From an uncultured Gammaproteobacteria bacterium (lineage in GTDB: Bacteria; Patescibacteriota; Patescibacteriia; Magasanikbacterales; GWA2-37-8): 64,000 nt of DNA. The notes under the pieces were generated by a model. It saw nothing but the letters and a program-made list of their open reading frames with translations. It did no database searches and was not told the DNA's origin. Shown piece after piece: positions 3,097 to 57,257 of this stretch. Where the stretch lies: contig CAZEDL010000006.1 in the NCBI GenBank assembly GCA_964510885.1, positions 12,531-76,530 on the forward strand. Direction: 5' to 3'. The number at the start of each line of letters is the position of its first letter. Position 1 is the first letter of the stretch. The translations under genes were made by a program, and so were the position numbers.

Positions 3097-4389
3097 ATGG
3101 ATATTCTTATCAGTCAATGTGCAGCTCATGTAGGCGAAACCGTTACCATAAAAGGCTGGCTTTATAACAAACGATCGTCCGGCCCGATTAGCTTTCTTGA
3201 AATTCGTGATGGCTCAGGATTTATTCAAGCGGTAGCGGTGCAAAAAAGTGTGGCAGCCGACGTGTGGTCGGCGCTTGAAGCGGTAACCCAAGAATCATCA
3301 CTCACGCTCACCGGTACGATTTCCAAACATCCCAAAAAAGATGATGTATTTGAGTTACAAGTTACCGGCGCCACAGTGTTGCAACAAGCCGTTGATTATC
3401 CGATCGCCAAAAAAGACCATGGCCCGGATTTTCTGATGGACAATCGTCATCTGTGGCTGCGCAGCAAACGCCAGTGGGCCATATTGCGCATCCGCGACAC
3501 GATCATCATGGCCATCCAGGAATATTTGCACACGCAGAATTTTATTCGCATTGATTCACCAATTTTTACCCCCAATGCCTGTGAAGGTACCACCACGCTA
3601 TTTGCAGTGCCGTATTTTGACCTCGGCTCCGCTTATATGTCTCAATCAGGCCAGCTCTATATCGAAGCTGCCATTGCCTCGGTCGGTCGCTGCTATGATT
3701 TTGGCCCAGTGTTCCGCGCCGAAAAAAGCAAAACCAAACGTCACCTCACCGAATTTTGGATGATGGATGCCGAAGCTGCCTTCATGGAACATGAAGGCAA
3801 TGTAGCGTTGCAAGAAAGGCTCGTCCGCCACCTCATCCGCCGCTGCCTTGAATCGTGCCAAACGGAGTTGCTGCTACTCGAGCGCAACCTCGACACCCTA
3901 AAAGCCGCTGATGCACCCTTCACGCGCTACACGTACGAACAGGCTATTGCCAAATTGCACGAGCTCGGCTCAGATATTAAATTCGGCGATGACCTCGGCA
4001 ACGATGACGAAGGCCTCCTGACCAAAGACAGCGCGGTGCCAGTATTTATCGAAAAGTGGCCAAAGAGTATCAAACCCTTCTACATGAAAACCGACCCAAG
4101 TGATGCCACTCGCGTGTTCAATGATGATCTGATCGCTACCGAAGGTGGAGGAGAACTCATTGGCGGCAGCCAACGCGAAGAAAACGTCGATATCTTACTC
4201 GCTCGTATAAAAGAAGAGGGGTTAAACCAGGCTGATTATGAATGGTATCTCGACACCCGTCGCTTTGGAGGTGTGCCGCATGCCGGCTTTGGTATCGGCC
4301 TTGAGCGCGTGGTACGCTGGATTTCCGGAGTCGAACATATTCGCGAGTGCATACCGTTCCCGCGGACGATTGGGCGCCTTAGACCTTAA
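3097..4389 (+). CDS. asnS: Asparaginyl-tRNA synthetase (class IIb; an archaeal-type AspRS is not fully excluded)
   Basis: Class II motifs FRAEKSKTKRHLTEFWMMDAE and GGSQRE. SGQL (rather than SPQL) and EFWM favour AsnRS. The preferred start is the internal ATG at 3097; the ORF-track start is 2986. Confidence 0.75.
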   Translation: MDILISQCAAHVGETVTIKGWLYNKRSSGPISFLEIRDGSGFIQAVAVQKSVAADVWSALEAVTQESSLTLTGTISKHPKKDDVFELQVTGATVLQQAVDYPIAKKDHGPDFLMDNRHLWLRSKRQWAILRIRDTIIMAIQEYLHTQNFIRIDSPIFTPNACEGTTTLFAVPYFDLGSAYMSQSGQLYIEAAIASVGRCYDFGPVFRAEKSKTKRHLTEFWMMDAEAAFMEHEGNVALQERLVRHLIRRCLESCQTELLLLERNLDTLKAADAPFTRYTYEQAIAKLHELGSDIKFGDDLGNDDEGLLTKDSAVPVFIEKWPKSIKPFYMKTDPSDATRVFNDDLIATEGGGELIGGSQREENVDILLARIKEEGLNQADYEWYLDTRRFGGVPHAGFGIGLERVVRWISGVEHIRECIPFPRTIGRLRP

Positions 4390-4403
4390 TAAACAAACCA
4401 AAA

Positions 4404-4431
4404 AATTCCCGCTCTCAGGCGGGAATTTTTA
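4404..4431. terminator. Bidirectional intrinsic terminator (AATTCCCGC-loop-GCGGGAATT followed by a T run) between asnS and a convergent gene
   Basis: Seen in sequence. Confidence 0.6.
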
Positions 4432-4458
4432 TCTTCTAACATCTAATAATGTACTATC

Positions 4459-5424
4459 TTAGCGCTGTGGTTCAAGGGTAATCACCGCCACCTCAGGCGG
4501 AGTAAATAACCGAAGCGGCGCGCCCGATTCACTGGTTCCAACCGTAGTAAAAATTGGTACCTTATTCCAAAAATTCAGCCAGCGATAAAAGCCTGTTCCG
4601 AGCCTAGACTCAACCTGCCCAAGTGGACCAAGCCATGGAAGCCATAGCTGCCCACCATGAGTATGGCCGGACACTTCAAGATCAGGCAGCGGCAAATCTT
4701 TCGGCCAAAATAAAATCCCGTCTGGATTATGACTAATCTGGATCAACGGGGTATGTGGTGGCCACTTTTTTAAGGCTGAAAAATCAAACTGCTGGCGGTA
4801 CACTTCATCCATGCCAAATAAACAAATAACCTGCTGCTTGATCGTAGGACATTCTAATTCGTTGACCAATAATGGCACATTAAGCTCAGCCAGCCGGGCA
4901 GACACGAGGGTAGATTTATCATAGTTAGTTTGGTAATCATAGGCCCGGTAGCCATATTCATGATTACCAAGCACGGCATAGACGGGTAACTTTTCAGCCA
5001 ATGCGCGCAAAGGTGAGAGGTATACGCTCTCGTCTTCCACCCCTTCATTTACCGTATAGTCGCCAGCGAGTAGAACCAGATCTGGGTTAATCGAGAGTAT
5101 AGTAGTGACCACTTTTTGTATCCATGCTTCTCGTTTGTGCTCACCGGCATGCAGATCAGAAACCACTACCACCCTAACGGGCTCTTTAATCCCGTTGATA
5201 GGGATGGATACCCGGTGTACCCGCAGCCAATTAGGCTCAATAAATCGGACATAGATGCCGAGTACAATAATAAGGCCTATAACAACTAAGAGGCCATAAG
5301 CCAAAAGCGGCCTACGCCCCAGCCAGGAGCGTTTATTTTTTCGGTCGCGGTTAAAAAAATAGGCGAGTAAAGCCAATACTCCTATGCCACCATACAGAAT
5401 TATTAAATACGGATTCAAATCCAT
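4459..5424 (-). CDS. Membrane-anchored calcineurin-like metallophosphoesterase
   Basis: Two N-terminal TM helices; DLH...GDY...GNHEY...GHTH phosphoesterase motifs. Confidence 0.8.
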   Translation of the reverse strand: MDLNPYLIILYGGIGVLALLAYFFNRDRKNKRSWLGRRPLLAYGLLVVIGLIIVLGIYVRFIEPNWLRVHRVSIPINGIKEPVRVVVVSDLHAGEHKREAWIQKVVTTILSINPDLVLLAGDYTVNEGVEDESVYLSPLRALAEKLPVYAVLGNHEYGYRAYDYQTNYDKSTLVSARLAELNVPLLVNELECPTIKQQVICLFGMDEVYRQQFDFSALKKWPPHTPLIQISHNPDGILFWPKDLPLPDLEVSGHTHGGQLWLPWLGPLGQVESRLGTGFYRWLNFWNKVPIFTTVGTSESGAPLRLFTPPEVAVITLEPQR

Positions 5425-5427
5425 AGT

Positions 5428-5658
5428 CTAATCAATATACCGAAAGCGGGGGACAGTGGCTCCATTATATTCTACCGTTTGCAAAAATTCTTCCTTCGGC
5501 CTAATAAACCAAGCTTCATTCCCAACCTCAGGATGATTATACAAGGCCTTATACACCACCTGTTTTTCTAGTGTTTCATGATGATATGCCTCACCAAGGA
5601 CTTCGTAAAAATTACCTTTGTAATGTTGGTAGCGGCCAAGCTTAATATGGTCAGTCAT
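5428..5658 (-). CDS. DUF1653-like small protein
   Basis: The motif YQHYKGNFYEV...YKALYN...WFIRP resembles DUF1653. The stop lies 4 nt from the downstream gene, so it is probably co-transcribed. Confidence 0.55.
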   Translation of the reverse strand: MTDHIKLGRYQHYKGNFYEVLGEAYHHETLEKQVVYKALYNHPEVGNEAWFIRPKEEFLQTVEYNGATVPRFRYID

Positions 5659-6055
5659 AAGAAAAAAAGTTTTTTAACTATACCAAAAAAATAAGCTATC
5701 GTCTACGTAAAATAAATAAAAACCCTTAAATTATAAGGGTTGTCTAGTTGCAGACGAAATAAAGTATTATCTGATCCAGAGTTTTGATATTTTTGAGTGT
5801 TTAAAGGTGTGTCTAGTCTTTATAGCTTTATAATATGAAGTTTTTATACAGTAGAAATATTATTTTGCAGTTAGATGTTTAGAGTTTTCTCTTATAGTTC
5901 CTGTACGAGAACAGAAGCTATAAGAGAATCGACGGTTGGGTAAGAAAAGAAACGGACCGTCGCGCCGTGTCATGAAGGCAAGAATTTTCACCTGACCTAG
6001 GTTTTCACCTAGGTCTACCTAGTCGCCCCCTCCTTAAGAATACGACGCGGTTTGG

Positions 6056-7843
6056 TTACTTGGCCAGCTCGGCCTCCCGCAGGATGCGCTCAACCTGGCC
6101 ATTGGTGATGGGGTGGTAGCCGGCCTTAACCTGTTCAAAGACGCGCCGCGCCCAGGCCAGGCCCTGGACGGTCTTCGCCTTGGCCCGCATCAGCGGGAGG
6201 ACGTACTTCATCCGGCCGCCCTCGACCAGGAAGCGCTCGATCTGGTCGTCCACCGCCGTGTAGCCGGACTCGACGGCGAGGAGGAGGAACGCCCACTTGA
6301 TCTCGGCGAAGCGGTTGGTGCTGAGGTTGAACTCGATGTCGAGCTTGGCGACGAACTCCGGGGTGGCCGGGCGCGGTAGCAGTTCCAGGTAAAGCGTCCA
6401 CTGCGGGTCGGACCAGGCCTGGCCGACCTCGCGGGGCGGGATGATGGACTGCTCAGCGTACCGCGCGACGTCGTCGATGAGCAACGACTCGATCTTCGGA
6501 GCGTTCTCGGGCCAGCCTGGCTCGTAGACGTAGCGCCAGGCCTGGACCTGCTCCAGCGCACCCGGCAACTCGGAGGCCACGAAGTCGAGGAAGGTGGCGG
6601 TATCGATGGCCGTGAAGCGGAACCGGGCGATGTAGGCCCGGATGAACCGGTCGAAGCGCTCACGCCCGACCCTCTCCTCGATGGCCCGGATGAACATCGC
6701 CCCCTCGAAGTACGGCACCCGCGAGAAGATGTCGTCGGGGTCGACGGCGCAGGAGATGTGGGTGGACAGGGCGGTAAGCTCGGGAGTGCCGGTCGTGATG
6801 AAGTGGTGGCAGTCCCGGCTGAACTCTCGGCCACGCAGGGCCATCTGCAGGAGGGCCGCGTCGCGGCCATGGAGCGCCTCGTAGATGCGCCACTCGATGT
6901 AGGTCGTCCAGCCCTCGTTGAGCCAGAACGACCGCCAGTCGGCATTGCCGATCAAGTTGCCGGTCCAGGAGTGGGCCAGCTCGTGGCCGACGACAGCCGC
7001 GCCGCCGGGGATTAGGGTGGGTGTCAGGAAGGTGAGCCGCGGGTTCTCCATGCCCCCGTAGGGGAAGGAGGGCGGCAGGATCAACAGGTCGAACCGCTCC
7101 CAGTCGTACGGGCCGAAGAGCCCCTCGGCCACGTCCATCATCTGTCCGACCTGGGCGAACTCAGCAGCCGCCGCGTCGACCAGCTCCACCTCGGACCAGA
7201 CGCGGCAGCGATCGGTGATGTCGCGCGACACCAGGTCGCCGACGGCGATGGCCATGAGGTAGGCCGGGATGCGCTGGGGCATACGGTATCGCTCGATCGC
7301 GAGCTCGCCCTGCTCCTCGCGGCCGAGGTGGTTGGCCGCCATGAGCGCGCGCAGCGCCTTTGGCACCGTGATCTCCGCCGAGTAGCTGAAGCGGATATTG
7401 GGGGTGTTCTGGCACGGCACCAGGCTCGGTGCGTGCAGGGCCTGGAATTGGGTGAACAGGTATGGGTGCCGCTTGCCCTTGGTCTGCTCAGCGCTGAGCC
7501 ACTGGATGCCGCTGGCCTCAGGCGAGGTGTGGTAGCGGATATTGACCCGGGGCTCGTCCTCGGGGACCATGACGTTCAGCCGCTGGCCTAGGACCGGCTT
7601 CGACTCGTGGAGCTGGAACTCCAGGGTCTGACCGGAGTTGTCGGTGACGGCTTCGATGGTGAGGTCCCGGACGTCGAGATCGACCGTGCCGCCCTGGCCG
7701 AAGTCGATAGTGGCGGTGCAGCTAATCGTCCTGGTGGCGAAGTTGATCTGGGCCTGCAGGTGCAGGTGGGTCATCGTCGGCTGACCCGGGCCGTAGTATG
7801 AATGCGGATCGCGCTTGATTGCTGGCATCTGCATCATGCACAT
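6056..7843 (-). CDS. M1-family zinc aminopeptidase (leukotriene A4 hydrolase/aminopeptidase N-like); high-GC gene
   Basis: HELAHSWTGNL...WLNEGWTTY is the HEXXH-(18)-E gluzincin M1 signature. GC is about 66% against about 50% in flanking DNA. The likely start is MCMMQM at 7843, preceded by GGAGAG; the ORF track extends to 7912. Confidence 0.85.
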   Translation of the reverse strand: MCMMQMPAIKRDPHSYYGPGQPTMTHLHLQAQINFATRTISCTATIDFGQGGTVDLDVRDLTIEAVTDNSGQTLEFQLHESKPVLGQRLNVMVPEDEPRVNIRYHTSPEASGIQWLSAEQTKGKRHPYLFTQFQALHAPSLVPCQNTPNIRFSYSAEITVPKALRALMAANHLGREEQGELAIERYRMPQRIPAYLMAIAVGDLVSRDITDRCRVWSEVELVDAAAAEFAQVGQMMDVAEGLFGPYDWERFDLLILPPSFPYGGMENPRLTFLTPTLIPGGAAVVGHELAHSWTGNLIGNADWRSFWLNEGWTTYIEWRIYEALHGRDAALLQMALRGREFSRDCHHFITTGTPELTALSTHISCAVDPDDIFSRVPYFEGAMFIRAIEERVGRERFDRFIRAYIARFRFTAIDTATFLDFVASELPGALEQVQAWRYVYEPGWPENAPKIESLLIDDVARYAEQSIIPPREVGQAWSDPQWTLYLELLPRPATPEFVAKLDIEFNLSTNRFAEIKWAFLLLAVESGYTAVDDQIERFLVEGGRMKYVLPLMRAKAKTVQGLAWARRVFEQVKAGYHPITNGQVERILREAELAK

Positions 7844-8054
7844 GTTGCTCTCCAATGCTGCCCCAACAGCAAGTTGATACGGGGGTGAGTGTGGTTGATT
7901 ATTCAACACCACTCAGCCCCGTATTCTTCAAAGAACAACATGATATATAAGCACTTGTCGCACTGAATGTCAATCGAGAGATAGTCAATATCAGCAATTA
8001 AATTTTCTAAATAAATAGAGGATTATTTTTTGTCACCCTTGATTCGATTCTTAC

Positions 8055-8100
8055 TTTGCAAATAACAAATACAGCTCCCCTGAAGGAAGCTGTATTTGTT
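8055..8100. terminator. Perfect 13-bp inverted repeat hairpin (AACAAATACAGCT...AGCTGTATTTGTT) downstream of tRNA-Leu
   Basis: Seen in sequence; a likely terminator for the tRNA transcript on the minus strand. Confidence 0.5.
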
Positions 8101-8104
8101 ATAG

Positions 8105-8186
8105 TGCCCAGAGAGAGAATCGAACTCTCATGACCGAAGTCGCGGGATTTTGAGTCCCGTGCGTCTACCAATTCCGCCATCTGGGC
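8105..8186 (-). tRNA. tRNA-Leu (anticodon CAA), class II with long variable arm
   Basis: The reverse complement gives GCCCAGA acceptor, a D-arm TGGCGGAATTGGTAGACGC identical to the E. coli tRNA-Leu D-arm, an anticodon loop CUCAAAA, a long variable arm, a T-arm GAGAGTTCGATTCTCTC and discriminator A. No encoded CCA. Confidence 0.9.
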
Positions 8187-8261
8187 CTAGCAATAAGCTA
8201 TAAGTAGCCGCTATATTAGCGGTTTCTTTTCTCCTTGTCAATCGTATGGTATACTCTCCCC

Positions 8262-9032
8262 ATGATCATCTCTGTAGTCAATCAAAAAGGCGGTGTCGGC
8301 AAAACCACCACCGCCGTAAACCTCGCTGCCGCCCTCTCCGAAGCCGGCAAATTTGTCTTACTGGTCGATCTTGATCCGCAAGGCAACGCCACCTCGGGCC
8401 TCGGGCTTAAAAGCGGGGAGCTAGAGCATGGGCTATACCATGCGTTAGTCGGTGCCCGTCGCTTGCACGACGTAGTGAAAAATACGGCGCATGCCGGGCT
8501 ACGGTTGGTTCCAGCCACACCTGATCTCGCTGGTGCCAACGTGGAACTGGTCAATGTCGACGGTCGGGAGATGAAGTTGTCTGATCTTCTTACCGAAGTG
8601 AACCATGCCTATGATTATGTGATCATTGATTGCCCACCGTCGCTCGGGATTCTGACCCTCAATGGCCTCGTGGCTGCTGATCACATTCTCATTCCGGTCC
8701 AGGCTGAGTACTATGCGCTCGAAGGCCTGGGGCAGCTTCTTAAAACGGTTGAATTAGTCCAAACCAATCTAAAACCAAATCTGGCCGTGCTCGGCGCCGT
8801 GCTCACCATGTTCGATGCGCGCACCCGCCTGTCGGAAGAAGTAATGCAAGAACTATACAAATATTTCCCGAATAATATTTTCCGCTCAGTGGTACCCCGC
8901 ACCGTGCGCCTAGCCGAAGCCCCTAGTTTTGGCCAAAGCATTTTTCACTACGAACCAAGCGGCAAAGGGGCGAAGGCGTATGAGAGGCTTGCTAAAGAGC
9001 TACTCGATAGATTCGAAAATAGTTCTGGCTAG
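8262..9032 (+). CDS. parA: Chromosome partitioning ATPase ParA/Soj
   Basis: Deviant Walker A VVNQKGGVGKTT and ParA/MinD family features. The ATG at 8262 is preferred; the track uses a TTG at 8235. An extended -10 TGgTATACT lies immediately upstream (8248-8256), so the mRNA may be leaderless. Confidence 0.9.
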   Translation: MIISVVNQKGGVGKTTTAVNLAAALSEAGKFVLLVDLDPQGNATSGLGLKSGELEHGLYHALVGARRLHDVVKNTAHAGLRLVPATPDLAGANVELVNVDGREMKLSDLLTEVNHAYDYVIIDCPPSLGILTLNGLVAADHILIPVQAEYYALEGLGQLLKTVELVQTNLKPNLAVLGAVLTMFDARTRLSEEVMQELYKYFPNNIFRSVVPRTVRLAEAPSFGQSIFHYEPSGKGAKAYERLAKELLDRFENSSG

Positions 9033-9059
9033 GTAATACTTGCTTAATAATTCACGTTT

Positions 9060-9101
9060 AATTTTCAATTTCTAATTTTCAATATCCAAACAATTTTCAA
9101 T
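9060..9101 (+). repeat. Three perfect direct copies of AATTTTCAAT immediately upstream of the parB start
   Basis: Copies at 9060-9069, 9074-9083 and 9092-9101 (seen in sequence). Confidence 0.6.
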
Positions 9102-9104
9102 CCT

Positions 9105-9974
9105 ATGTCCCTCGGTCGCGGCCTTGGCGCCCTCATCACTCCCACCACCGGCGCCCGCAAACAAACTATCCTCTCTACCGGTTCTATGCAGAATAGTGCC
9201 GATAAAGTCTGGTCGATTCCGCTCAGTGAGATTAGTGCGGATCCGAAGCAGCCACGCCGCACCCTCAAGCCAGCCGAATTGCAAGAATTGGCTGATTCGC
9301 TCAAAACCCACGGCGTGCTGCAGCCAATTTTAGTGCGTGAAAAAGATAGCGGAGGCTACGAAATCATTGCCGGCGAACGCCGTTTCCGGGCCGCGCAATT
9401 GGCAGGCCTGTCTACCATGCCGGCATTAGTCAAAAAATTTGCCGACCGCGAACGACTTGAAGTTGCCTTGGTGGAAAATCTGCAGCGTCAGGATTTAAAT
9501 CCGATTGAAGAAGCAGCTGGCTATGACCGACTAATCAAAGAATTTGGCCTGACCCAAGAACAAGTAGCAGCCAAAGTCGGTAAAGGCCGCCCCACCGTGG
9601 CCAACTTGATCCGCCTCCTTAGTTTGCCTGAAGAAGTGAAGACTGCGCTCGTGAACGGCGATATTAACACCGGCCAAGCCCGGTCTCTCCTAGCCCTCCC
9701 AAGCAGCAGCGAACAGCTGGCTCTGCTCTCCAGCATGCGCGGCCAAAAAATTACGGTGCGCGAACTAGAATCGCAAGTACGCACCAAAACTCCGGCCGCC
9801 CCGGCTCGCCGTGACCCCAATCTCAGTTATCTCGAAGACACCCTCCGCTCTGCCCTCGGCGCCAAAACCAGCATTACGCAAAAAGGCGGCCGCGGCACGA
9901 TTACCATCCACTATCATTCGGTCGAAGAATTATCCGGTATTGTGAAAAAGATTACGGATGACAGTGTGGAATAG
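9105..9974 (+). CDS. parB: Chromosome partitioning protein ParB/Spo0J
   Basis: ParB box GERRFRAA, HTH region, 289 aa, downstream of parA. Confidence 0.9.
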   Translation: MSLGRGLGALITPTTGARKQTILSTGSMQNSADKVWSIPLSEISADPKQPRRTLKPAELQELADSLKTHGVLQPILVREKDSGGYEIIAGERRFRAAQLAGLSTMPALVKKFADRERLEVALVENLQRQDLNPIEEAAGYDRLIKEFGLTQEQVAAKVGKGRPTVANLIRLLSLPEEVKTALVNGDINTGQARSLLALPSSSEQLALLSSMRGQKITVRELESQVRTKTPAAPARRDPNLSYLEDTLRSALGAKTSITQKGGRGTITIHYHSVEELSGIVKKITDDSVE

Positions 9975-10037
9975 TGCTTCAACCTAAGAATAAGTAATAA
10001 TTAAAAAACACCCTGGTTAGGCCAGGATGTTTTTTTA

Positions 10038-11564
10038 TTATGATTTCGGCGGAGTCGGCACTTTACCGCGTTTATACGGAATAATCTGTTTTATCCAGCT
10101 ACTCAGCGACGTATTCTTCAAGGAGTTTTTAATATGCGCCCGCGCGTGGTGCGTCTTTACGGTTTTCAGCCAATCCGGGCTCGGGCCTTTGCGATTCTTG
10201 TCGATCGTGATCGCCACCACGTCGCCGCTTTTAAGCGGTGTATCAAGTGACATCAATTGATCATTCACCCGGGCACCGCTACACTGGTTGCCGATATCGC
10301 TATGAATATGATAGGCAAAATCCACCGGCGTGGCATCTTCGGGCAAATCGATCACGTCGCCCTTCGGGGTGAAGACAAAAATTCGGTTCTGGAAAAAATC
10401 TACTTTCAATTCTTCCATCCCCGACAGGTTCACCAAGATTTCCTGCTGGATTCTGGCCAGTTCCTTGGCCCAGGCCACATCACGCGGGGGCCGGCGCGAC
10501 CCTTTTTCATCATAGAGCCAATGCGCGGCCACACCGAATTCCGCTTCCGCATGCATTTCCGGGGTACGAATCTGGAATTCCACCACCTTGCCATTATCGG
10601 CAAACACCGTGGTATGGAGCGACGAATAGCCGTTCGGCTTCGGCTGCGCAATATAATCTTTAATCCGGCCTTTCAGGGGCCGCCACAATTGGTGAATGAT
10701 CCCGAGCGTGGCATAACAATCGCCCACATCACCCACAATCACGCGCAGCGCCACAATGTCATACATCTTATCCGTTTCCCAGCCTTTACGCTGCAATTTT
10801 TGAAACAAGCTATAGAGCTGTTTTTGTCGGCCGTAGACATCCATTAATTTAATATGCGCCTTAGATAATTCCGTCCGGATTCGGGCCGTTACTTTTTCGA
10901 TCGAATCGCCCTGATCTGCCAGCAGACGATCGCGGATAGTTTTAGTCCGTTCGTATTCCTTGGGATAAATATACGGGAAGGACAAATCTTCCAGAAATCC
11001 TTTGAATTCACCCATGCCGAGGCGGTGCGCGATCGGAGCATAAATCTCAAGGCTCTCGAGCGCAATTCGGTGCCGTTTTTTTTCGGGCAGAGCATCGAGC
11101 GTGGTCAAGTTGTGTGTTCGATCGGCAAATTTAATCACCATCACGCGGACATCTTCGGCCATGGCCACGAACATCTTGCGCAAATTTTCGAGGTAGCGCT
11201 CAATGCCGCGGTATTTGAGTTTGCCAAGCTTCGTAATCCCTTCGATCATTTTGGCAATATCAGCCCCGAAATTTTTTTCAATCTCGGCCAGTGTCACTGC
11301 CGTATCTTCCGGCACATCGTGCAGGAGGGTGGCCACAATAATATTCGTCTCCATGCGCATTGTGGCCAAAATCCAGGCTGCCGCCAGAGGGTGCACAATA
11401 TATGGCTCGCCGGATTTGCGGAATTGTCCCGAGTGAGCGTTGGCTGCAAAATCATAGGCCAACCGCACCATTTCAAGATCCGATGATCCGCGGTACGACC
11501 GGATTTCTTTGACCAGTTTATCAATCGTCAGATCAGCGGGGATAGTAGTGCTGCTATATGACAT
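10038..11564 (-). CDS. Bifunctional (p)ppGpp synthetase/hydrolase Rsh (RelA/SpoT homolog), short form
   Basis: HD hydrolase domain (HD...DVPED), synthetase domain (RTPEMHAEAEFGVAAHWLY) and a TGS region. At 508 aa the C-terminal ACT/RIS region appears to be missing. Confidence 0.9.
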   Translation of the reverse strand: MSYSSTTIPADLTIDKLVKEIRSYRGSSDLEMVRLAYDFAANAHSGQFRKSGEPYIVHPLAAAWILATMRMETNIIVATLLHDVPEDTAVTLAEIEKNFGADIAKMIEGITKLGKLKYRGIERYLENLRKMFVAMAEDVRVMVIKFADRTHNLTTLDALPEKKRHRIALESLEIYAPIAHRLGMGEFKGFLEDLSFPYIYPKEYERTKTIRDRLLADQGDSIEKVTARIRTELSKAHIKLMDVYGRQKQLYSLFQKLQRKGWETDKMYDIVALRVIVGDVGDCYATLGIIHQLWRPLKGRIKDYIAQPKPNGYSSLHTTVFADNGKVVEFQIRTPEMHAEAEFGVAAHWLYDEKGSRRPPRDVAWAKELARIQQEILVNLSGMEELKVDFFQNRIFVFTPKGDVIDLPEDATPVDFAYHIHSDIGNQCSGARVNDQLMSLDTPLKSGDVVAITIDKNRKGPSPDWLKTVKTHHARAHIKNSLKNTSLSSWIKQIIPYKRGKVPTPPKS

Positions 11565-11882
11565 ACAGCAAGAAAAATTTTAATTTTCGATAATAAATCT
11601 CTATGCGCAGTATAGCTTTTTAGACTAAAAATGTCTATAAATCAGTCGTTTTATGGCTAATTTTTGGGTGTAATTACCCTGTGTATAACTCCGTTGACAC
11701 CTCCTGCAGCCATGATAAGTTACATAGTATAAAAAATATGAATCTCATTCACCAAGCTCATCAATTGTTTACTAATAAGGTCAGCATCTTGCCGACCATT
11801 ATTTGCGTAAATAATTTTTACTGGACGAAGGGTGATGAGCGCATAGGTGTAGCCTGATACCAGGCCACAATCTAAAACCACA

Positions 11883-11913
11883 TCACCCTGAATCTAACGA
11901 TCAGGGTGATTTT
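11883..11913 (+). terminator. Terminator-like hairpin TCACCCTGA-loop-TCAGGGTGA followed by TTTT in a noncoding region
   Basis: Seen in sequence. No annotated gene lies upstream on the plus strand, so it could end an unannotated small transcript. Confidence 0.35.
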
Positions 11914-12078
11914 AATTAAGACTGCTCTTTCACATCTGCTAACAATTGCTTGGCCATCAGCCCATACGGGGGTTATGTACTAATGGTCGAGCGATTGTTT
12001 AGTAACTATTTTCAGGCCCATCGGCCTGAAACAGCGCTCGAAAGTCCTGGCTTGCCCAGGCATTCATAAGGAGATCCC

Positions 12079-12285
12079 ATGCCGTTCGCCACCGCTTCCC
12101 AGGAAGATCATCCTGCCACCAGCCCGATCCACCCTGCTGCCCAGGAGTCCGCCGATGCGCCCGCGGACCCTCTGTTCATCGATGAGGTCCACGAGGTCTT
12201 CAACATCCCGCGTCGGCCCTCTGGGCCTGAGGTGGGGGGTGACCCCGTGTACAAGAGGCCACGCGGAACCTACTTCGTGTCGTAA
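12079..12285 (+). CDS. Hypothetical 68-aa protein in a high-GC segment, with a strong Shine-Dalgarno
   Basis: AAGGAG lies 6 nt before the ATG. GC is about 62% with GC3 bias. No recognisable domain. This could instead be part of a structured RNA. Confidence 0.3.
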   Translation: MPFATASQEDHPATSPIHPAAQESADAPADPLFIDEVHEVFNIPRRPSGPEVGGDPVYKRPRGTYFVS

Positions 12286-12320
12286 TCATCGGCACGCAGT
12301 TCACCGCCGGACGCTCGAGC

Positions 12321-51122: not shown

Positions 51123-51947
51123 TTACCACCATGTAATATTGACATGACTCCAGGCCTCCCACCAACGGCTCCAGTTCCATTTCCAGGGCCAACCGTAGGT
51201 GGCCAGCCGCTTCCACCAGGGTGGCAGATGTGTGGTGCCGAAGAGTCGGTCAGCGATAGCCAAGCGACTGGTGATTTCGAGCCACATGCTCGGGCCACCC
51301 TTCATCGAGAAGCCGAACTGGCGGCCATAGCCATGGTGCAATCCATGGTGCGGGCGACAGCCAGCAATCAGCCAGCCATAAGCCCCGGTCGGCTGCCATT
51401 CGGTGTGGAGGGTAAAGTGCACCACATCGATCCACCAGGCTTTGCCGATGGCGTACGTAATGGCCGCTAGCGCCACCCGCGGGCTCAAGAACCAAAGCCA
51501 CCCGAATACCGCCCAGTCAGCGAGGACAGCTGCTGGCATTGAGCGGAGCGGGAAGAAGAGCTCGGACAGATCGCTCGGGTTCGCATGGTGCGCCCCGTGG
51601 CTCCGGCGTGGGCCACGGGGTAAGATTAGGCTCGTCCATTTCAGCACACCGCGCGGCACATGCTGCACATTGCCATGGATGAACCATTCAAGAGAGAGCT
51701 TGATGAACAGAATCAGGCCGATCGCGATGAGGGCGAGCACCCAGTGATGCGGAGTGCTGGTGAAGCGCGGTACGCGAAAAAAGGCGGCAAGATGGGTGAG
51801 GAATAGCAGGGCCAGGAACCACGGGGTCGGCTCCCTGATGATAATGGCGAGCGCCTTCTCAAAGGTGTCAGTGTTCGGAATAAAAAAGCTCGGGCTCGGC
51901 TTGGCGTTAGTCGGAGTCATGGCAAACCTCCTTGCCTTTTTTGGCAT
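51123..51947 (-). CDS. Fatty acid hydroxylase superfamily membrane protein (sterol desaturase-like; histidine boxes)
   Basis: His clusters HGAHH and HHGLHH in a multi-TM context. GC is about 57%, above the background. Confidence 0.55.
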   Translation of the reverse strand: MPKKARRFAMTPTNAKPSPSFFIPNTDTFEKALAIIIREPTPWFLALLFLTHLAAFFRVPRFTSTPHHWVLALIAIGLILFIKLSLEWFIHGNVQHVPRGVLKWTSLILPRGPRRSHGAHHANPSDLSELFFPLRSMPAAVLADWAVFGWLWFLSPRVALAAITYAIGKAWWIDVVHFTLHTEWQPTGAYGWLIAGCRPHHGLHHGYGRQFGFSMKGGPSMWLEITSRLAIADRLFGTTHLPPWWKRLATYGWPWKWNWSRWWEAWSHVNITWW

Positions 51948-56380: not shown

Positions 56381-56517
56381 TATTTGTTTAGTGCCTGAGA
56401 CGTAATATCGAGCCAGTATTTTGCTAAAAATAGCTAAGTAACGCCCTATATACTACTAATCGTACTATATACCGCGGTGCCTAGCACCATAAACTGAAAA
56501 TTGATAGGAGTTCGCTG

Positions 56518-57210
56518 ATGAACAAAAAAATTGGTCAGACCCTTGCGATCCTCGCCACCCTTCTCCTCGGCGCTTGCGGCTCCACGGAGTCGGGGCCGCT
56601 GGAGAAGGATCCTGCGCCCACCGCTCCCCAGACCGTCTACGGCGCCTGCACCTCCGACTCGCAGTGCCCCGGGGGCACGTGCCAGCAGGGCGTCTGCGTG
56701 GTCGAGAAGATCATCACGGTGCCGGCTGAGCCGGTCTGTGGCATCCGCTATAGCAAGCTGGATCTGGCCCCGGTGCCCTCGCGCAGCGAGCCCGTACAGC
56801 CGACCCTCTGCTTCCGCGCCGAGCCCTCGGTCATCTCGCCGAACTGCCAGCCGGTGGCGACCAATTTCGCATTCATCTTCCGCGTCAAGAGCGAGCGCCT
56901 CGACAAAGTCAACGTGATCCCGGGTGCGACCGTCGATGGGCAGAGCGTGGCCTTCCCGCTCCTCAACGGTGGCTCGCTCGGACCGAGCGGCTGGTACTAT
57001 GTCCGCCATGAGATCGCTGGCGTTCGCGACATCGGCAACGGCCTCACCATCTGCGCGCAGTGCACCAACTGCGCCACACCCGACGATCAGCCAAAGCTCG
57101 GTGTCTACATGGAGAGTCGGCTCGAGGGCGTGACGTGGGCCAAGACGCCGACCAGCGCGACCGAGAAGAACTACAGCCTCGACCTGCCCGTGGCGCTCGG
57201 CATCTTCTAG
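56518..57210 (+). CDS. High-GC Cys-rich lipoprotein (hypothetical)
   Basis: Lipobox LLLGAC, a GGAG-type RBS, about 64% GC with strong GC3 bias, and Cys-rich segments (CTSDSQCPGGTCQQGVC, CAQCTNC). Confidence 0.6.
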   Translation: MNKKIGQTLAILATLLLGACGSTESGPLEKDPAPTAPQTVYGACTSDSQCPGGTCQQGVCVVEKIITVPAEPVCGIRYSKLDLAPVPSRSEPVQPTLCFRAEPSVISPNCQPVATNFAFIFRVKSERLDKVNVIPGATVDGQSVAFPLLNGGSLGPSGWYYVRHEIAGVRDIGNGLTICAQCTNCATPDDQPKLGVYMESRLEGVTWAKTPTSATEKNYSLDLPVALGIF

Positions 57211-57257
57211 CCTCTTTTTTACCGCACAGAGCGGTGGGAAGGCCAACTCGACTCAAA

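Follow-up and report, generated by a model that had tools for sequence, protein, structure and literature searches.

A gene of foreign composition, encoding an M1-family aminopeptidase, was found in the 64,000-nucleotide stretch of DNA analysed here (the window; contig CAZEDL010000006.1 of assembly GCA_964510885.1). We interpret it as a single gene of about 2 kb that a Magasanikbacteria-like Patescibacterium with a genomic G+C content (GC) of about 49% gained from a high-GC Patescibacterium, by uptake of DNA and illegitimate recombination, a reading to which we assign a probability of about 0.8. Horizontal acquisition, which had originally been predicted from the sequence alone, is supported by three observations: the composition of the gene is foreign, the corresponding site is empty in a related genome, and the assembly is sound across the whole segment.

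Composition, empty site and assembly

The coding sequence (CDS), when counted from the ATG at 7828, has a GC of 0.665 and a GC at third codon positions (GC3) of 0.915, compared to a GC of 0.49 for the whole window and a GC3 of 0.504 ± 0.069 for the other 54 open reading frames (ORFs) of the window (z ≈ 5.7 for the aminopeptidase gene). GC is 0.64–0.68 in every 400-bp interval across 6001–7800, as against 0.33–0.35 beside the block on the left and 0.43–0.47 on the right. The high-GC block lies 7.1 standard deviations above 1,159 intervals of equal length taken elsewhere in the window, the richest of which has a GC of 0.549. Codon usage is shifted as well: the synonymous-codon likelihood per codon is −1.15 with the window's own genes as a reference and −0.71 to −0.80 with genomes of 66–73% GC. 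The deviations in GC3 (z = 5.7), block GC (z = 7.1) and codon likelihood are of the kind by which a horizontally acquired gene is recognized. In addition, stop-free antisense stretches of up to about 190–210 codons lie over the gene, and a 245-aa ORF occupies another frame of the same strand. The original prediction, namely an M1 gene of about 66% GC in DNA of about 50% GC, with a strong GC3 bias and open antisense frames, was accurate on each of these points. Its location, given as 6040–7920, was right as an observation and is corrected here to a CDS at 6056–7843 on the minus strand and a GC-elevated block at about 5955–7928.

The limits of this block (5955–7928) were obtained from segment GC values, a change-point scan and the composition profile, and they likely mark the extent of the imported high-GC DNA. 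Within the block, GC is 0.66 in the CDS, 0.53 in the approximately 100 nt of 3′ flank and 0.51 in the approximately 85 nt of 5′ leader. Outside it lie two very AT-rich spacers (5720–5954 and 7929–8060; GC 0.25–0.36). These had been described as AT-rich and repeat-bearing, of which the former holds and the latter does not: they carry hairpins rather than repeat families, and a search of the window and of all the loci retrieved yielded no further copy of them. An Rfam scan of the spacers detected no noncoding RNA besides the tRNA.

The window itself is a piece of core chromosome, encoding AsnRS, ParAB, RelA/SpoT, TopA, DnaE, PheT, RecG, ClpB and Mur ligases. Among named sequences, its TopA comes closest to those of Ca. 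Magasanikbacteria and 'Patescibacteria group' (68–73%); judging from these matches, the host is a Magasanikbacteria-like Patescibacterium of about 49% GC. A relative, represented by a contig of GCA_964585245.1 (L093), is collinear with the window, with nine orthologues that are 65–90% identical at the amino-acid level. Its gene order is RelA, ParB, ParA, tRNA-Leu(CAA), DUF1653, Metallophos, and blastn aligns its positions 6595–8529 with 9955–8060 of the window and its positions 8605–9776 with 5640–4487. Between tRNA-Leu(CAA) and DUF1653 there are 76 bp in L093 versus about 2.34–2.42 kb in the window: a related genome lacks the gene at the orthologous site, as is the case for acquired genes. 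According to blastn collinearity and the junction alignments, the whole segment 5720–8060, which consists of the aminopeptidase gene and its spacers, is absent from L093.

The upstream border of the insert is tRNA-Leu(CAA) (8104–8186, minus strand; ARAGORN and Rfam), which lies outside it. This tRNA gene is intact and followed by its own terminator hairpin (8062–8102), both being conserved in L093 at 8400–8529. The downstream border is the DUF1653 gene (5428–5658, minus strand; Pfam PF07866), which directly follows tRNA-Leu in L093. The T-tract and the '...TAGAC' that come after the tRNA terminator of L093 reappear at about 5700–5722 of the window, behind a terminator at 5721–5741. Since a foreign composition and an empty site are found together, it is far more parsimonious to assume a gain in the lineage of the window than a loss in L093. 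Furthermore, the GC3 of the gene is still about 0.91 and has barely drifted towards that of the recipient, indicating that the transfer took place long after the split from L093.

The segment is not an assembly chimera. Indeed, an independent Logan contig (L004, from SRR16481186; 2,956 bp) is 100% identical to positions 5214–8169 of the window, spans both GC steps, and has its two ends in the Metallophos gene and in tRNA-Leu; moreover, both flanks of the segment are neighbours in L093. The Logan contig was reached through P0121, the second member of the protein's 90% cluster, which comes from the Logan assembly.

The aminopeptidase and its flanking signals

The CDS of the LTA4H (leukotriene-A4 hydrolase)-type M1 aminopeptidase (6056–7843, minus strand) is supported by the ORF list, by Pfam and NCBIfam matches and by public gene calls. 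It ends with a TAA stop codon (6058–6056) and encodes 595 aa from the ATG at 7843, or 590 aa from an alternative ATG at 7828; the 590-aa and 595-aa forms have both been called in public data (P0001 and P0121). The ORF delimited mechanically (6056–7912, minus strand), which is the sole long ORF of the segment, reaches a GTG at 7912. Translation likely starts at the ATG at 7843 (or 7828) rather than at this GTG, and a Shine–Dalgarno sequence, GGAGAG, is found at 7853–7848, ahead of the ATG at 7843.

The protein displays, in this order, the Pfam domains PF17900 (Peptidase_M1_N, 49–219), PF01433 (Peptidase_M1, 257–449, E = 5e-38) and PF09127 (Leuk-A4-hydro_C, 500–611), that is, the three-domain architecture of LTA4H-type proteins of about 600 aa. 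It aligns over the full length of the NCBIfam model TIGR02411 (2–598 of 600 positions), which, together with the Pfam domains, upholds the M1 (LTA4H/aminopeptidase N-like) identity initially assigned to it. The score of this alignment, 437.8 bits, is below the 761.7-bit equivalog cut-off of TIGR02411, and the protein does not qualify as a leukotriene-A4 hydrolase proper (EC 3.3.2.6): as judged from these scores, it belongs with the LTA4H-like aminopeptidases. Since bacteria lack the leukotriene pathway and its substrate, only aminopeptidase activity is to be expected.

The residues that characterize the M1 family are all present. The zinc ligands HExxH-X18-E are provided by HELAH and, 18 residues further on, by the glutamate of VVGHELAHSWTGNLIGNADWRSFWLNEGW, with H282, E283, H286 and E305 invariant across 26 homologues. 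The GxMEN exopeptidase motif, which binds the N-terminus of the substrate, reads GGMEN; G259-M-E-N262 and the catalytic tyrosine are likewise invariant in these 26 sequences. The closest match in the PDB (3CIA, E = 4e-122) is ColAP, a cold-active LTA4H-like M1 aminopeptidase from Colwellia psychrerythraea, with an alignment over the full length (residues 12–588 against 16–604). ColAP has the same three-domain architecture, GxMEN motif, HExxH-X18-E signature and catalytic tyrosine; by contrast, identity to it is moderate, it comes from another phylum, and it falls outside the Patescibacteria clade described below, its Alteromonadales relatives being distant in the tree. Human LTA4H (e.g. 1HS6) comes next, with an E-value of about 1e-102 and the same fold and domain order, the TIGR02411 score of 438 bits being far under the cut-off of 762. 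The N-terminus shows no evident signal peptide. Taken at sequence level, the product is an intact, probably cytoplasmic LTA4H-like M1 aminopeptidase that, once expressed, would probably free N-terminal amino acids from imported peptides, an activity probably useful to an auxotrophic, scavenging cell.

A plausible promoter for the gene can be read at 7973–7945 on the minus strand, within the AT-rich spacer: it is composed of TTGACA (7973–7968), a 17-nt spacer and TGc-TTATAT (7953–7945), and scores below the threshold of the consensus scan. The 5′ leader contains a hairpin with a 22-bp stem (7877–7924, minus strand; inverted repeat I2, 86% complementary), and the region 7840–7989 of the minus strand folds at −55.7 kcal/mol (z = −4.9 compared to shuffled controls). 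In the minimum-free-energy fold, an additional helix, between 7943–7929 and the Shine–Dalgarno/AUG region 7857–7843, encloses this hairpin and could mask the ribosome-binding site. We do not claim a regulatory role for this predicted structure, because the nearest homologues show no conservation of it. For the same reason, a conserved 5′ hairpin as a part of the transferred unit was considered and rejected: the leaders of the nearest relatives give z ≈ 0, and the hairpins of two high-GC loci (L001 and L090) resemble tRNA terminators.

On the other side of the gene, a 9-bp hairpin with a GAAA loop and without a T-tract lies 41 nt past the stop codon (5994–6015, minus strand), and a second hairpin is found at 5887–5928, on the downstream side of this minus-strand gene; the evidence for them is the sequence and inverted repeat I5. 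At 5721–5741 (minus strand), where the insert ends distally and immediately ahead of the DUF1653 promoter, the terminator scan detected an intrinsic terminator made up of AACCCTTATAATTTAAGGGTT and a subsequent T-run. The aminopeptidase transcript is predicted to end there, probably at this terminator.

Donor, route of entry and competing explanations

The homologues were a broad sample of the family obtained by a contig scan, to which the closest relatives were added one at a time. Among 5.8 billion proteins, the best non-self matches display 56–60% identity; the named ones are Ca. Uhrbacteria and the others come from unnamed metagenome-assembled genomes (MAGs). Next come sequences from Magasanikbacteria, other Patescibacteria and Myxococcota, with about 48–52% identity. 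In a neighbour-joining tree of 83 sequences (named genome loci and top matches; 577 columns, 200 bootstraps), the window protein belongs to a clade of 25 sequences (96.5% bootstrap) that comprises all Patescibacteria-labelled sequences and in which every named member is from the Patescibacteria. Myxococcota and Acidobacteriota fall outside this clade, and Nocardioides, the only actinobacterium sampled, is far removed from it. Within the clade, the window protein groups with L087, L002, P0003 and L089 (71% bootstrap) instead of with its counterpart from the named Magasanikbacteria, the two being only 50% identical. The hosts of L087, L002 and L089 are classified to phylum only: that of L089 is a Patescibacterium, its DnaG being 80% identical to a named one, and the MurC of another locus (L003) points more weakly to Parcubacteria. 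The window and the homologue-carrying loci have no housekeeping gene in common, the aminopeptidase gene being the only one shared. It had been suggested that closest relatives of the same lineage and of similar GC would speak against a transfer: the matches are indeed from the same phylum, but the GC of the gene does not match that of the recipient.

High-GC Patescibacteria that carry the gene do exist. In three genomes of 62–64% GC (L001, L090 and L092, the last labelled Uhrbacteria), the gene has a GC of 0.68–0.69 and a GC3 of 0.91–0.93, and is found in a conserved synteny with genes for a methyltransferase, UPF0102, NusA and YidC. Its composition there is that of the window's copy, which makes such organisms a plausible type of donor. 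Values given in bin names, which we take to follow the usual naming convention, run to 57, 60 and 63% GC for Uhrbacteria and from 33 to 51% for Magasanikbacteria. Since Uhrbacteria-like lineages of 57–64% GC carry the gene natively, we take the donor to have been a high-GC organism and, most probably, another, unsampled Patescibacterium. Codon likelihood was also tried as a means of identifying the donor and was rejected, as it follows GC3 only: Latescibacterota, Nocardioides, Vicinamibacteria and Myxococcaceae fit equally well. The codon-usage comparison proposed in the original prediction thus confirmed the foreign composition without telling donor phyla apart. Note that L090 (GCA_964585225.1, CAZPCZ...) and L093 (GCA_964585245.1, CAZPCV...) bear neighbouring assembly and whole-genome-shotgun accession prefixes; going by these accessions, they probably stem from one study or habitat, in which case donor-type and recipient-type Patescibacteria would co-occur.

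As for the route of entry, the high-GC donor, most probably a Patescibacterium, would have supplied the gene for the cytoplasmic enzyme as free DNA, the recipient would have taken this DNA up (DprA is encoded in the window), and illegitimate recombination would have placed it in the short, non-essential spacer between tRNA-Leu(CAA) and DUF1653. We favour uptake of free DNA and illegitimate recombination because no recombinase, attachment-site repeat or terminal repeat is present. The ORFs found in 5660–8104 are the aminopeptidase gene, the ORFs that overlap it in other frames or on the opposite strand, and spacer ORFs of at most 57 aa, none of which encodes an integrase or a transposase. No second copy of the tRNA 3′ end (21 nt) was detected in the window at up to three mismatches, and the best flanking direct repeat (8 nt, p = 0.44) is not significant. 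Close to the two GC borders, the gene is bracketed by a 9-nt perfect inverted repeat, AAGAATACG (6036–6044 on the plus strand and 7920–7928 on the minus strand), which occurs three times in the window versus 0.32 expected. As a terminal repeat it was rejected, given p = 0.145 against shuffled flanks and its absence from all other loci of the gene; likewise, no boundary motif is shared between the window's insert and the other islands carrying this gene.

The original prediction had pointed to the neighbouring tRNA-Leu gene as a classic landmark of integration. The tRNA-Leu gene is indeed there, about 45 bp from the boundary of the insert; it is, however, a neighbour of the insert rather than its target or attachment site, because both the tRNA gene and the terminator behind it have stayed intact (with conserved counterparts in L093), the tRNA 3′ end is not repeated and no integrase is present. 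The junction lies past the terminator of the tRNA. Of the hallmarks of a classical tRNA-integrated island, the segment shows adjacency to a tRNA gene, and neither an integrase nor tRNA-derived direct repeats. It resembles the classical tRNA-associated genomic and pathogenicity islands in its deviant composition, its tRNA neighbour and its absence from a related genome, and differs from them in that its 2.4 kb or so hold just one gene and lack an integrase, tRNA-derived direct repeats and mobility genes. In the Uhrbacteria-like genomes of 62–64% GC, the aminopeptidase gene is located between tRNA-Leu(GAG) and tRNA-Val(TAC) in the same orientation (L001, 9766–12052; L090, 898–3334), tRNA-Val being the only one of the two found beside it in L092 (775–2723). 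Recombination anchored by the tRNA was considered and discarded, as the spacer between tRNA-Leu and the gene shows no homology between the window and L001 or L090. In L001, an ORF with a faint LAGLIDADG_3 match (9129–9803) lies between HisRS and the tRNA-Leu(GAG) that directly precedes the gene, and could be the remnant of a homing endonuclease.

Four other explanations were weighed. That the gene is the cargo of a tRNA-targeting integrative element or mobile cassette whose recombinase has since been lost is unlikely: the insert abuts tRNA-Leu, the gene also follows tRNA-Leu(GAG) and precedes tRNA-Val in the high-GC Uhrbacteria-like genomes, and AAGAATACG brackets it, but all the signs of such an element that were looked for are missing or insignificant, from the recombinase and the tRNA 3′-end copy to a shared boundary motif or homologous spacers, and the junction lies beyond a tRNA and a terminator that match L093. 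Another possibility is that the gene is ancestral at this site, was deleted in L093 and owes its high GC to a force acting on this gene in particular, for instance biased gene conversion or selection at the level of codons or mRNA. One empty site alone cannot polarize gain versus loss, and the gene is GC-richer than the genome in all nine Patescibacteria loci, deep branches included, which could hint at a cause intrinsic to the gene. Nevertheless, we regard this explanation as quite improbable: a member of the clade, L089, has a gene of ordinary GC (0.48 versus 0.44), showing that a high GC is not intrinsic to it, the GC of the gene stays within −0.03 to +0.05 of its background in the 54 genomes from other phyla, its genomic context differs in every lineage, the window's copy does not group with that of the named Magasanikbacteria, and no known mechanism keeps one gene at a GC3 of 0.9 in a genome with a GC3 of 0.5.

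A third explanation, raised in the original prediction, is that the gene comes from the high-GC cell on which an episymbiont lives, for instance an actinobacterium. Some Patescibacteria do live on Actinobacteria, and a GC of 0.66 with a GC3 of 0.91 fits any genome of 66–73% GC, Nocardioides being among the best fits (−0.712 per codon). Codon fit, however, tracks GC alone; the identity to the Nocardioides homologue, which branches far away, is only about 43%, whereas all the matches at 56–60% are from Patescibacteria or from unnamed MAGs in Patescibacteria-type contexts, and the window protein lies inside the 96.5% clade. An actinobacterial origin is accordingly very improbable. Finally, an assembly or binning chimera, in which a piece of a high-GC organism's contig has been wrongly joined, is hardly credible. 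It would account for the abrupt change in GC at both junctions in a sequence that comes from a MAG, and the exact protein is recorded from one NCBI contig and one Logan contig only; yet the latter, built independently, is identical through both junctions, a false join would not have brought together two flanks that adjoin directly in L093, and the gene is accompanied by a terminator and by AT-rich regulatory flanks that resemble those of the host.

Several observations nonetheless weigh against transfer from a high-GC Patescibacterium. The outer AT-rich spacers are part of the insert, and these 130–235 bp on each side are not explained by a high-GC donor. No donor nearer than 60% amino-acid identity was found among the 5.8 billion proteins, so that the donor lineage is one that we infer rather than observe. 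In the tree, the window's copy does not pair with the syntenic Uhrbacteria-like trio of high GC (1.5% bootstrap), and its nearest relatives all come from genomes that are not GC-rich. For the identity of the clade, we depend on the labels that submitters gave to six MAGs and on a single marker check, and the tree was built by neighbour joining, not by maximum likelihood. Codon usage, which cannot tell phyla apart, supports a donor of 66–73% GC and nothing more specific.

Acquisition of the gene from another Patescibacterium agrees with what has been described for the phylum. Gios et al. (2025, mSystems; PMC12455944) reported islands and individually transferred genes by the hundreds across 125 genomes of Patescibacteria, exchanged for the most part inside the phylum, found that the majority of single-gene transfers into Patescibacteria have a donor from the phylum itself, and proposed competence-type uptake, in line with the route outlined above. 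Their survey used automated detection (MetaCHIP and IslandViewer), and the donors were often unsampled; its main text does not mention 'peptidase'. The present case is similar to theirs in that a streamlined Patescibacterium acquired one gene, with a donor inferred to be within the phylum; it differs from the survey by an explicit empty site, independent assembly support and an extreme, unameliorated GC contrast. Horizontal transfer among Patescibacteria and the enzyme family were both already known; what is new is an unusually clean example, with an insertion site mapped to within tens of bases in an ultra-small, streamlined bacterium. The case illustrates that neither contamination nor a gene derived from the host cell has to lie behind an island of deviant composition in a Patescibacteria MAG, which bears on symbiont–host inference and on the clean-up of MAGs; here, phylogeny points to exchange within the phylum. 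The enzyme would add a capacity for peptide scavenging, which fits an auxotrophic lifestyle.

GC excess of the gene in other Patescibacteria and further high-GC patches

The GC of the aminopeptidase gene is close to that of its background in 54 genomes of other phyla (median difference +0.008, range −0.027 to +0.050). By contrast, the median difference in eight Patescibacteria loci is +0.081 (Mann–Whitney p = 4e-9), and with L095, added later, the gene is GC-richer than the genome in 9/9 Patescibacteria loci. The offset is largest in the window (+0.175), followed by L002 (+0.144), L011 (+0.138), L095, a named Magasanikbacteria (+0.123), and L087 (+0.096), so that five offsets reach about +0.10 or more, the rest ranging from +0.04 to +0.07. 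These nine loci cover deep branches of the clade (45–60% identity), and the genomic context of the gene differs each time. This clade-wide excess, of which the window may be one case, suggests repeated gains from GC-rich Patescibacteria. A tentative possibility, which we put forward with low confidence, is that the gene turns over fast, being regained from a reservoir of high-GC Patescibacteria and lost before it ameliorates, or else that an unrecognized process holds the GC3 of this one gene high in streamlined genomes of intermediate GC.

Other short high-GC ORFs were observed in the window and in L093, at places that the two do not have in common. L093 has high-GC ORFs without a counterpart in the window: a 227-aa Pro/Ala-rich ORF of 0.70 GC beside RelA (3812–4495), and, at 9962–12148, a pair of ORFs (about 0.59 GC) located between the Metallophos and AsnRS genes. 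Where L093 has the 227-aa ORF, the window shows only a patch of about 0.60 GC (12001–12300). Small high-GC insertions thus seem to recur in this lineage. At 56518–57210 on the plus strand, the window contains a 230-aa Cys-rich, lipoprotein-like ORF (MNKKIGQTLAILATLLLGAC...) with a GC of 0.657, a GC3 of 0.866 and no Pfam match, which is a candidate for a second foreign high-GC gene; the longer antisense ORF at 56446–57246 (minus strand) is probably spurious. A milder outlier, at 51123–51947 on the minus strand, encodes a predicted membrane protein of 274 aa with His-rich motifs (GC 0.594, GC3 0.73, no Pfam match).

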